From Escherichia coli (lineage in GTDB: Bacteria > Pseudomonadota > Gammaproteobacteria > Enterobacterales > Enterobacteriaceae): a stretch of DNA of 64,000 bases. Where the stretch lies: the NCBI RefSeq assembly GCF_003334305.1, contig NZ_QOWS01000002.1; one strand, 5' to 3'. This document shows, in pieces, positions 23,001-26,000 of this stretch (its first letter is position 1; each line of letters starts with the position of its first letter). The position numbers are program-made.

Positions 23001-26000
23001 GGAATCAGGCCCGGGGAGCGGCGTAAGTCGCGCCGAATAGTAGTTACATAACCGCTGGACGCCGCAAACCTGAGCAACCGTCAGGGCCGTAGACAAGCGT
23101 TCATAAGCGGTGAAGGTCTGTGAACGGGTCACGGTAAGCTGGTCAGGGAACAATTCCACTGCAAGAACGCGCGCAGGGACCAGCCATGAAAGGAAGGGAG
23201 CCAGCGTTTCTTCATCAAGGATCACGTCGAGCAGAAAGGGATCGCTGACCTTTGCGGCTTCCGGGACCAGAGGCAGAACGTCATACTCCGCAGTACTGGA
23301 TTGCGTTTCATGATACCAGTGGCTTTTGCCGGTGATGTGGCGTTGTTCCATGGGCGCTCCTTGGTCGTAAAGGAAATCGTTATCCTGACGCAAGGCGGGA
23401 AGGGGAGAAAGACGGATCGGCGATAACAAATATCAGAAAGGTATAACAGAGATAACGGGCGGCAGAACGCCGCCCAATATTTACCAACAGAATGATTATT
23501 TCAATTCGAGTTCGTTCATTGCAGCGATGCTGAAACCGCCGTCAACGTGGACCACTTCACCGGAGATACCGGCAGAGAGATCGGAGCACAGGAATGCCGC
23601 GGAGTTACCCACATCTTCAATAGTAACGGTACGGCGAATCGGGGTAACGGCTTCGCAATGAGCCAGCATTTTGCGGAAGTCTTTGATACCGGAGGCCGCC
23701 AGAGTACGGATCGGACCAGCAGAGATGGCGTTAACACGCACACCTTCCGGACCCATCGCGTTCGCCATATAGCGCACGTTCGCTTCCAGAGACGCTTTTG
23801 CCAGACCCATAACGTTGTAGTTCGGGATAGCGCGCTCAGCGCCAAGGTAGGAAAGGGTCAGCAGGGCAGAACCCGGATTCAGCATGGAGCGGCAAGCTTT
23901 TGCCATTGCAACGAAGCTGTAGGAGCTGATGTCGTGGGCAATTTTGAAGCCTTCACGGGTAACGGCGTTAACATAGTCACCATCCAGCTGATCGCCAGGT
24001 GCAAAACCAATAGAGTGTACGAAACCGTCAAATTTCGGCCAAACTTTCCCCAGTTCAGCGAACATGGTGTCGATGCTGGCATCTTCTGCAACATCGCACT
24101 GCAGAACGATGTCAGAACCCAATTGAGCGGCAAATTCTTCTACGCGGCCTTTCAGTTTGTCGTTCTGGTAGGTGAATGCCAGTTCAGCTCCTTCGCGGTG
24201 CATCGCCTGAGCGATACCGTAGGCGATGGATAGTTTGCTGGCAACACCGGTTACCAGAATGCGCTTACCGGAAAGAAAACCCATAGCTTTAATCCTTATT
24301 GTTGATGCTTGTTGTGCCTGAAAATCAGGCGATTCGTCGTTTTAGTAAACAGTACGAACAGATAAACGGTTATTATAATCAACCTGGCTGTGAGTAGCTA
24401 TAGTTGCCAGGTCCGACCGGAGCAGGCTGCGGCAGGGTGGGCGTTTTTCCCCTCACCCTAACCCTCTCCCCAGAGGGGCGAGGGGACCGTATTGTGCAAA
24501 TATTGTTACCCCAGCAACAAACAGGCTCATACAGCCCCTAACCCTTTCATGGCGATGGCTGGGACGGTTCAGACCTTGCCGAATATTCTCCAGCACCGTC
24601 TCCATGTTTTCACCACAACAGCTATTCGGCTCGGTCTGCCCCCTCGCTCTTTCAGGGAGAGGGTGACCGGCGGTTCAGTTCCTGCAGAATATTCTCCAGC
24701 ACCGTCTCCTCATTACAATCAATCTCGTTATTCCAGAAACGCAGCACGGTCCAGCCCTGCGACTCAAGCCAGCTAGTGCGCCTGGAATCATAGGCAACTG
24801 CTAAATCATGCTGCCCACCATCCAGCTCAACGACTACACGCGCCGAGCAGCAAGCAAAATCGAGAATGTAGCTCCCCACTGGATGTTGACGGCGAAATTT
24901 GAAATCACTAAAACGTCGGCTGCGAAGATATCGCCAGAGCTTTCGTTCCTGCAAAGTGAGATTGCGTCTTAAATCACGCGCATTTGATTTAATTTTATCT
25001 ATCACCTCATTCTGACAAGATTTAATCTTTTGTCAGAATGAGGTGAATAATCTGGAAGGAGGATTCAGAAAATTAGCGATCTTTACGCCACGCATCCGCC
25101 GTCAATGCCTCGCCAAAATGACCGGCAATCAGCCGTTTGGTGAGTTCATGCAGCGGCGATGCCAGCACATCCGCGGTGCTGCCTCGCTCGACAACCTCGC
25201 CCTGATGCATCACCAGCACCTGGTCGCTAATGTGCTTCATCATTCCGATATGCTGGGTAACATAAATATACGAAATGCCCTGTTTTTCCTGTAACTCCAG
25301 CATCAGATTAATCAACTGCGAACGCATCGACATATCCAGTGAAGCGAGGGCTTCATCGGCAATAATGACTTTTGGGCGCAATATCAGCGCGCGCGCCAGA
25401 CCCAGACGCTGTTTTTGTCCGGGTGCCAACATATGCGGATAGTAACTGACGTGATCCGGTAGCAGCCCAACCATACGCATCGTTTCAATAATCTGTTTGC
25501 GACGCTGTTCCGGTTCCAGGTCGGTGTTCAGGCGCAGTGGAAAATCCAGAATTTGCGAGATACGTTGACGGGGATTCAACGAGGTCGAAGGATCCTGAAA
25601 AATCATGCGAATACGCTGACTGCGGAAGGAATAATCGCCAAAATGCAGTGGATGATCGTCAATCAATAACTCGCCGCTGGTAGGCTCTATCATTCCCGCC
25701 AGCATTTTTGCCAGCGTGGATTTACCCGAACCATTCTCGCCAATAATCGCCAGTGTCTGGCCTTCACGTAGCGTAAAGCTCAAGGGTTTTACCGCTTCTA
25801 CGGTCTGACGACGAAACCAGCCGGTCCGGTAGCGGAACGTTTTACTTAAATTACGCACTTCAAGCAGCGTTTCGATCATCTCACTCTTTCTCCATGTTCA
25901 GCGGGAAATGACAGGCATAGAGATGATTTTTCGCCCCCGTCAAACGTGGCGTCACAATGCATTCTCGTTGTGCATACGGGCAACGTGGCCCCAGACGACA

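Follow-up and report, generated by a model that had tools for sequence, protein, structure and literature searches.

Why should the last codons of a gene recur beside the gene itself, each copy accompanied by the same GC-rich hairpin? The question is raised by the fabI-ycjD spacer of an Escherichia coli genome, contained in a 64,000-nt stretch of contig NZ_QOWS01000002.1 that is referred to here as the window. The hairpins belong to BoxC, a classic E. coli repeat family (also called PIT or TMECO elements) for which, to our knowledge, neither an origin nor a function has been established since 1992. We likewise know of no function for YcjD, a conserved protein, nor of any role assigned to DUF559, the very large family to which it belongs. 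The comparisons presented below make it probable that this spacer forms the 3' limit of a DUF559 (YcjD) gene cassette assembled from BoxC elements.

The first-pass annotation of the window had described a 39-nt near-copy of the ycjD 3' end and placed its partner at 24670-24708. A repeat search bore out the near-copy and moved the partner by one base: 24565-24603 and 24671-24709 are identical at 35 of 39 positions (90%), with a spacing of 106. Gapped local alignment widens the homology to 24535-24603 versus 24640-24709, taking in the GC-rich element, and its score of 65 lies far above those of 1000 shuffles (mean 14.3, sd 2.2, maximum 24). The 23-mer common to both copies, GAATATTCTCCAGCACCGTCTCC, occurs exactly twice in the window, against an expectation of 0. 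The dyad of the CCCTC.../...GAGGG type said to precede each copy reads CCCTCGCTC-TTTCA-GGGAGAGGG at 24641-24663 and, in decayed form, CCCTAACCC-TTTCA-TGGCGATGG at 24535-24558. As the same annotation had it, the ycjD stop codon falls inside the former, TGA being contained in the TTTCA loop; moreover, the final Pro-Ser-Pro codons of YcjD are the reverse complement of the adjacent G block (24655-24663). The last codons of YcjD and its stop are BoxC sequence. The pseudo-unit keeps the register of the real end (hairpin, 3 nt, then tail), and an intact element, at 24448-24486, is found 79 nt away in the direction of fabI.

The region is 100% identical to that of E. coli strain H15 and 99.5% identical to that of K-12, and the gene order on the minus strand is sapF (25073-25879), ycjD (24652-25005) and fabI (23496-24284), from the list of open reading frames (ORFs) and the RefSeq annotation of the K-12 region. 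Its features are as follows.

23496-24284, minus strand: coding sequence of fabI (envM), from the ORF list and the RefSeq annotation of K-12, with the repeat cluster in its upstream region.
24450-24485, minus strand: intact BoxC/PIT/TMECO element of type A with one mismatch, CCCTCGCCCC-TCT-GGGGAGAGGG-TTA-GGGTGAGGGG.
24487-24534, no strand: spacer from the intact BoxC to the decayed copy, from allele alignment; also present in single-copy alleles.
24535-24564, plus strand: decayed BoxC, CCCTAACCC-TTTCA-TGGCGATGG-CTG-GGA, 75% identical to 24640-24663.
24565-24605, minus strand: pseudo-tail, a duplicate of the last ~13 ycjD codons (M-ETVLENIRQGLNR...), matching 24671-24709 at 35/39 positions.
24606-24639, no strand: linker between the two repeat units, found only in two-copy alleles and absent from PapM-32-1 and 2017-02-2CC.
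24641-24663, plus strand: truncated BoxC of type B lineage, with C block 24641-24649, loop 24650-24654 and G block 24655-24663.
24652-24654, minus strand: ycjD stop codon TGA in the BoxC loop, from ORF coordinates and sequence.
24671-24709, minus strand: true ycjD 3' tail, codons ...EETVLENILQELNR, the partner of the pseudo-tail.
24652-25005, minus strand: ycjD, encoding a 117-aa DUF559 protein of predicted Vsr-like PD-(D/E)XK nuclease fold, from Pfam and PDB matches and RefSeq.
25003-25046, no strand: perfect 17-bp hairpin directly downstream of the sapF stop, CACCTCATTCTGACAA...TTGTCAGAATGAGGTG, from the sequence.

For the published record of BoxC we draw throughout on Holder et al. 2015 (PMC4666352), which defines the TMECO as CCCTCNCCC-N3-6-GGGNGAGGG-N3-GGGNGAGGG and equates it with BoxC and with Hoyne and Maher's PIT elements. 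The segment 24450-24485 fits this consensus on the minus strand, is the exact reverse complement of TMECO no. 9 of that paper (29 min, antisense; Table 1), and has conserved BoxC flanks reaching ~24440-24500. Because the BoxC reference given there, Bergler et al. 1992, is a study of envM (= fabI), the fabI-ycjD spacer appears to be the original BoxC locus. The elements at 24641-24663 and 24535-24564 retain the hairpin part of the consensus only, the full pattern being found in alleles L005, L006 and L007, where the ycjD end reads CCCTCGCCC-TTTCA-GGGAGAGGG-TTG-GGGTGAGGG. The truncated element has lost its second G block through a 12-nt slippage deletion, a difference also noted in PMC12817139; in the decayed one a deletion of 13 nt, by comparison with strain TUM10828, has removed the third block, the fuller L005 copy reading GGGCGATGGCTGGGGTGAGAG. 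Holder et al. describe BoxC/TMECO elements as "always" intergenic, but 24641-24663 is not, overlapping the last three ycjD codons and the stop; it went uncounted in their survey because it falls outside the strict pattern. The same source reports intrastrand triplex formation by the consensus in vitro and an association of TMECOs with genome instability. Folded as single-stranded DNA, the intact BoxC (24450-24485) gave -12.4 kcal/mol (z = -2.9) and the ycjD-terminal one (24641-24663) -5.0 kcal/mol, whereas the decayed copy (24535-24558), at -1.9 kcal/mol, did no better than shuffles and has no stable fold.

YcjD matches PF04480 (DUF559) over its full length (E = 1.5e-49; model positions 2-109 of 109) and PDB entry 3HRL, an "endonuclease-like protein" (E = 1e-27); PMC3424549 groups DUF559 with Vsr and the homing endonuclease I-Bth0305I. 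Residues D49, E60, D62, H66, D73 and R76 are invariant in an alignment of 18 homologues and are compatible with a predicted nuclease active site. A search of the PADLOC models gave no sign of membership of a defence system, no family matching YcjD at E <= 0.01. Most of the best 120 homologues come from Enterobacter, Klebsiella, Kluyvera, Lelliottia, Phytobacter and related genera, and these end LPSPRPSP-stop. The corresponding DNA consists of a C block, CGG, a second C block and a stop-bearing loop, that is, of a type-B BoxC with its G blocks in reverse complement, which upholds the earlier suggestion that the last YcjD codons derive from the repeat. More distant homologues end ...PSPQPSPRGERE, ...PSPGPSPLGGEGQ or ...PAPLPQGERGE.

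Strong conservation of LPSPRPSP-stop in enterobacterial homologues whose overall identity is 55-65% could be taken to mean that PSPRPSP is a selected, functional peptide. In the same vein, hairpins placed at the end of an ORF, ~165 nt upstream of essential fabI, might serve as a terminator, as an mRNA stabiliser or as an insulator between ycjD and the fabI promoter. A promoter/terminator scan did not pick the BoxCs as terminators, no T-run following the hairpins, and PIT elements are without promoter or terminator activity according to Hoyne and Maher 2002, as cited in PMC4666352. In other loci, described below, the frame in which the element is translated varies, some lineages not translating it at all, and it also lies upstream of the gene, forms orphan pairs and sits inside unrelated ORFs. 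Selection for a role in expression or for the peptide itself is on these grounds extremely improbable as an explanation.

The junction of gene end and hairpin is not peculiar to E. coli. The 18 homologues, trimmed to residues 1-106 so that the tail was excluded, were aligned, and the alignment was searched against one genome per species, with peptide patterns standing for the core motifs. Among 80 loci, the best-scoring of the first 600 pattern matches, 62 have a hairpin of the form CC[CT]TCNCC-N1-14-GGNGA[GA]GG within -10 to +150 nt of residue 106, and several of the other 18 carry visibly degenerate copies. Near the gene end hairpins number 6.25 per kb, as compared with 0.32 per kb over the other 443 kb; they cluster a second time 30-160 nt ahead of the start codon. 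The complete three-block element has a preferred orientation on either side: upstream, 37 loci carry it forward (C block, loop, G block, G block) and 7 carry it reversed; downstream, 50 loci have it reversed and 17 forward; and 24 loci combine the forward upstream with the reverse downstream copy, over a background of 0.15 per kb. YcjD-like genes of Proteobacteria, Cyanobacteria/Melainabacteria, Elusimicrobia and others are bracketed in this way, the reverse copy overlapping their last codons; outside the enterobacteria, an inverted upstream copy accompanies the 3' element at most loci. The two ends of one locus, loops and flanks included, are near-identical inverted repeats of one another (L067, 42/42; L045, 41/41; L036, 37/37; L023, 42/43; L020, 53/55), enclosing with elements of ~35-55 nt a cassette of ~400-580 nt. 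Orphan elements near the cassettes show loop variants that are specific to the genome and shared with its cassette ends. The frame in which the element is read differs by lineage (PSPxPSP, e.g. PSPRPSP; PLPQAGEG; LTPTPLPEGEG), or the element lies beyond the stop; conservation is therefore at the level of DNA and not of peptide.

Both subtypes seen in E. coli, A (CCCTCGCCCC...TTA) as well as B (CCCTCTCCC...CCG), recur in remote genomes (L066, from candidate division FCPU426; L078; L021), as does the pairing of A with B. A locus of Erwinia mediterraneensis (L070, ~3340-4100) has seven tandem copies of the 3' element and adjacent sequence, with a period of ~103 nt, downstream of its DUF559 gene, a tandem amplification like that of the window. 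Arrays of 3' elements are found also in L087 and L027, and Serratia and Pseudocitrobacter loci show them. Spread on phages or plasmids was considered and found to be unsupported: among 50,697 records of phages 2 gave a match, and among 72,556 of plasmids 39 did, the latter mostly chromids or mislabelled chromosomes.

Some of the cassettes lie inside other genes. At no fewer than 14 loci the DUF559 frame stays open for hundreds to thousands of nt on both sides, and in ten such ORFs an NCBIfam host family and the YcjD model, PRK09767, which matches all inserted copies, were found in the same ORF. The hosts are HrpA (at two different sites), MetG (ahead of the C-terminal tRNA-binding domain), BioF, YgiQ, CarB, PriA, CobT, IspE and PrmA, and the match to the host family is mostly split into two stretches flanking the insert. 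In the hrpA frame of L036 (...HFAGAP | SSPSPSGRG...DUF559...LPEGEGLK | PAPIIQVSGRTYPVE...) the 37-nt ends are perfectly inverted and directly abut host codons. Since the hosts have no functional connection to a nuclease, selfish insertion is the economical reading. An intein or intron origin was rejected: host sequence abuts the ~35-nt repeats, and the junctions (...GAP|SSPSPSGRG ... EGEGLK|PAPII) are devoid of intein motifs.

Two further arrangements were noted among the host genes. In a Gastranaerophilales genome (L042, 2878-4608) a single ispE frame holds two DUF559 cassettes, one N-terminal and one in the middle of the kinase. In the hrpA genes of Gallionellaceae/Nitrosomonadales, L037 has gene-less element pairs (reverse, 26 nt, forward) in frame at three sites, and in sister genomes (L036, L069 and L054 were compared) these sites are empty, hold a single element or are decayed.

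Gene-less pairs occur in E. coli as well. With a 65-nt query around the intact element, 5426 complete E. coli genomes gave between 1 and 29 places each, the median being 16, and further BoxC copies were read at tktB-ypfG (downstream of tktB), hrpB-mrcB, fepB and ygfF-gcvP. The last three are pairs in K-12 (forward, 17-27 nt, reverse), apparently the layout of cassette ends without the gene. The hrpB-mrcB pair of K-12 (L089) is absent from ~1890 E. coli genomes, which have 8 unrelated nt (ACCAAAGC) in its place. In other alleles of this site (L092-L094 were compared) either an internal deletion has spared a single hairpin or one block of 12 nt is missing, as at the ycjD end. In Enterobacteriaceae, ycjD-like genes are followed by a reverse type-B and then a forward type-A element. 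The same 3' pair accompanies the YcjD homologue of Enterobacter asburiae (L011, 1210-5291), whose neighbours are rdgB-hemW on one side and, on the other, a PRK10626-family gene and then trmB; this hemW-side locus, distinct from sapF-fabI, is common to the Enterobacter/Phytobacter/Pluralibacter group.

These data bear on the simplest alternative, that an autonomous BoxC, a structural repeat or one comparable to a repetitive extragenic palindromic (REP) sequence and unrelated to ycjD, landed by chance on the end of the gene in an enterobacterial ancestor and was then duplicated by local slippage. In its favour, K-12 has 23 TMECOs and a DUF559 gene beside only one of them, strains lacking ycjD retain BoxCs, and, in earlier work cited in PMC4666352, the genes next to the elements shared neither function nor class, and neither promoter nor terminator activity was detected. 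A chance landing does not account for the recurrence of the same 3' element at 62 of 80 independently sampled loci from many phyla (an enrichment of ~20-fold), for its fixed orientation with, usually, an inverted partner upstream, or for the retention of the BoxC pair at two different chromosomal loci within Enterobacteriaceae. Coincidence is, in our judgement, very unlikely.

The history of the spacer can be read from its alleles. ycjD was found in 3378 E. coli genomes, its tail at most twice per genome, and the pseudo-unit in 3318 of them (~98%). The comparison across strains that the first-pass annotation had proposed shows that copy number varies between them. Allele 2017-02-2CC has one copy, its ycjD ending ...RRSPSPQPSP-stop within a full BoxC, CCCTCGCCC-TTTCA-GGGAGAGGG-TTG-GGGTGAGGG, 45 nt from an oppositely oriented type-A BoxC; L007 and L095 are also single-copy alleles. 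TUM10828 has two units, both with full three-block elements, and its pseudo-copy still codes for a complete alternative tail, with ...SLSPQPSP-stop falling within a full BoxC. Two units without their third block are present in the window, in K-12 and in 00-3076, a 12- or 13-nt deletion having occurred in each unit between repeated GGGNGAGGG blocks. MFDS1022581 carries an independent second duplication with a different junction, in which non-coding spacer is visibly included, and PapM-32-1 a single chimeric unit, as would be expected from unequal crossing-over between two BoxCs. In protein clusters P0004, P0012 and P0074 (147-148 aa) ycjD is joined at ETVLENI to the frame of the pseudo-tail, and clusters of 159-160 aa read through one BoxC into a second tail. 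The annotated C-terminus of YcjD consequently varies by strain (117, 120-121 or 147-160 aa) via repeat-mediated events. The kept register, the complete tail in TUM10828 and the strain variants together favour the original description of a tandem remnant of a DUF559 tail carried on a repeat, and the spacer is, by this comparison of alleles, a tandem duplication still undergoing repeat-mediated change. Because the pseudo-tail of the window equals the real tail over 23 nt while those of 00-3076 and TUM10828 differ at 3 and 6 positions, gene conversion or a recent exchange between the window copies is suggested.

A minus-strand ORF of 50 aa in the window (24453-24605; METVLENIRQGLNRPSH...PLAPLGRGLG) begins at the pseudo-tail and runs through the intact BoxC. 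Its frame is that of the C-terminus of the 147-148-aa YcjD variants, which occur in strains with an inter-repeat deletion.

The pseudo-tail might also be what is left of a second DUF559 cassette, inserted separately in tail-to-head arrangement with ycjD and since deprived of its body. The tail of the TUM10828 pseudo-copy (...KNIRQGLNHHSLSPQPSP-stop) is complete, ~76% identical to the real one and provided with its own full BoxC, and the back-to-back reverse and forward BoxCs downstream of ycjD resemble a junction of two cassettes. Homology, however, ends at the same codon (ETVLENI) in all alleles, with no DUF559 sequence upstream of it; the independent duplication of MFDS1022581, with its different junction, includes non-coding spacer; tandem 3'-element arrays are found elsewhere; and no ycjD-tail remnant beyond the two copies was found in any E. 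coli genome among the 3378 that carry ycjD. Two separate insertions seem to us rather unlikely, and a tandem duplication at the 3' boundary of a single cassette is preferred.

In this preferred reading, ycjD ends inside a BoxC pointing toward the gene, with the intact BoxC of the other subtype standing back-to-back with it. One unit, comprising spacer, BoxC and ~45 nt of gene tail, has been duplicated in tandem between the two BoxCs, giving a period of once ~119 and now 106 nt. The fabI-proximal copy has decayed, and the third block of both copies was lost by slippage of 12-13 nt between GGGNGAGGG blocks. One-copy and fused alleles continue to arise in the population by unequal recombination between the copies. 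Ends that are prone to hairpin or triplex formation and internally repetitive would make the spacer liable to both duplication and deletion.

Replacement of the whole interval is also seen. About 2050 of the 5426 complete E. coli genomes match just the first 118 nt of the spacer, and in O157:H7 (L002/L004) ycjD and the repeats are replaced, in the fabI-sapF interval, by the eefRABCD efflux island, which encodes a TetR regulator, a resistance-nodulation-division (RND) pump, an outer membrane factor (OMF) and a major facilitator superfamily (MFS) protein. The switch points lie near 24407 on the fabI side and at the sapF hairpin on the other; the exchange of eefRABCD for ycjD has been published (PMC12817139). 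One arm of the sapF hairpin contains the annotated GTG start of ycjD, and its stem, with a different loop, is also present in eef-carrying O157:H7. An Rfam scan of 23000-26000 found no known RNA family, with sub-threshold, spurious miRNA matches on the sapF hairpin only.

The numbers of elements per strain bear on a broader proposal. Table S1 of Holder et al. gives TMECO counts of 13-30, 1-2 and 6-11 in three strain sets. K-12, with its 23 TMECOs, has a DUF559 gene at the ycjD locus only. The strains with 13-30 elements we take to be phylogroup A/B1 plus the ST69 strain UMN026, those with 1-2 to be B2, and those with 6-11 to be D/E/F. According to PMC12817139, A/B1 strains and ST69 UMN026 carry ycjD. 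The comparisons lend good support to the view that BoxC elements are ends or orphans of DUF559 cassettes. The dispersed BoxCs of E. coli are then probably orphan ends, or derivatives resembling miniature inverted-repeat transposable elements (MITEs), of such cassettes, and ycjD and its BoxC cluster probably make up a resident and largely immobile representative of the cassette family, a relic. It is possible, and we advance it tentatively from sequence comparison, that the cassettes form a hitherto unrecognised and very widespread class of selfish elements of ~0.4-0.6 kb, with BoxCs as their terminal inverted repeats and orphans and a YcjD-type nuclease as their sole gene. This nuclease might recognise or cut the hairpin/triplex ends and so spread or maintain them, in-frame insertion in essential genes might leave Pro/Ser/Gly linkers with a nuclease domain, and ycjD might be the source of the 13-30 BoxCs of A/B1 strains.

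Several observations weigh against the cassette reading. In the window and in every enterobacterial locus examined the upstream inverted BoxC is absent, the 3' side alone carrying BoxC. In E. coli ycjD is single-copy at a fixed site, with no sign of current mobility, and strains without it, O157 included, keep ~10 BoxCs; the correlation between strains and TMECO counts is confounded by phylogeny. In the 12 nt beyond the cassette ends there are no direct repeats that would mark a target-site duplication, and no near-identical cassettes occur in different contexts, none of the 80 loci exceeding 83% nucleotide identity. Those loci, moreover, were selected by score from the first 600 matches and come in many cases from metagenome-assembled genomes. 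At hrpB-mrcB, the one polymorphism examined, the boundaries between presence and absence are untidy and uninformative on insertion ends. Finally, the similarity of linker 24606-24639 to spacer 24487-24534 is not significant; because homology between them is not demonstrable, the exact duplication unit of the window allele is taken from other alleles.

The BoxC repeat itself, its presence at the fabI-ycjD locus and its instability are already known. What appears to be new is the duplication of the gene tail, the overlap of repeat and coding sequence and, most of all, the cassette structure that joins DUF559 to BoxC, with its in-frame insertions, and there is a substantial chance that these point to a new class of miniature selfish element; none of them, and no link of DUF559 or ycjD to BoxC/TMECO, was found in the open-access papers searched. 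If true, the link would account for the TMECO-associated genome instability reported in 2015, for the PSP...GEG peptides that recur as tails and inserts and clutter the annotation of bacterial proteins, and for in-frame domain insertions in HrpA, methionyl-tRNA synthetase (MetRS), PriA and other proteins. Locally, the results identify the region upstream of essential fabI as a polymorphic repeat cluster.

Comparison with known systems brings out both kinship and differences. With BoxC/PIT/TMECO elements as previously described (Bergler 1992; Hoyne et al. 2000; Holder et al. 2015, PMC4666352) the present ones have in common a division into A and B subtypes, a tendency toward pairing and instability from strain to strain; unlike in the published account, where the elements are intergenic, without an associated gene and, as proposed there, unstable through triplex formation, one copy here provides the last codons and the stop of ycjD, and the family seems tied to DUF559 genes. 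I-Bth0305I (PDB 3R3P; PMC3424549) belongs to the same nuclease superfamily group and to a selfish element that inserts within genes, but it rides a group I intron, whereas DUF559 cassettes have inverted repeats of ~35 nt and no intron or intein features. Insertion sequences and MITEs resemble the cassettes in having terminal inverted repeats (35-55 nt here), one small ORF, and gene-less forms (two terminal repeats around a spacer) in the same genomes; the cassettes differ in lacking a DDE or serine/tyrosine transposase, their sole ORF being DUF559, in showing no target-site duplication and in their length of ~400-580 nt. The Rickettsia palindromic elements, described by Ogata et al. in 2000, are reportedly palindromic repeats lying in frame in protein genes and apparently tolerated as extra peptide. 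These are not known to have an associated nuclease gene, and their sequence and hosts differ from those of the DUF559 cassettes. A further parallel is with REPs and their associated tyrosine transposases (RAYTs), whose repeats form REPINs. Both systems have a short, dispersed hairpin repeat, orphans in the form of doublets, and a number of repeats that varies with the gene. Inverted copies on both sides of a single-copy nuclease gene are seen in the related loci (24/80 with both ends), while in the window and in enterobacterial loci flanking is one-sided. RAYT is an HUH/Y1 enzyme related to the TnpA of IS200/IS605, whereas YcjD is a Vsr-like PD-(D/E)XK protein; REPs are species-specific and are not known for in-frame gene insertion, whereas BoxC sequence is conserved across phyla. 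The link between BoxC and DUF559 gives both families a testable hypothesis, that of a nuclease and its cognate DNA ends, comparable to REP and RAYT.

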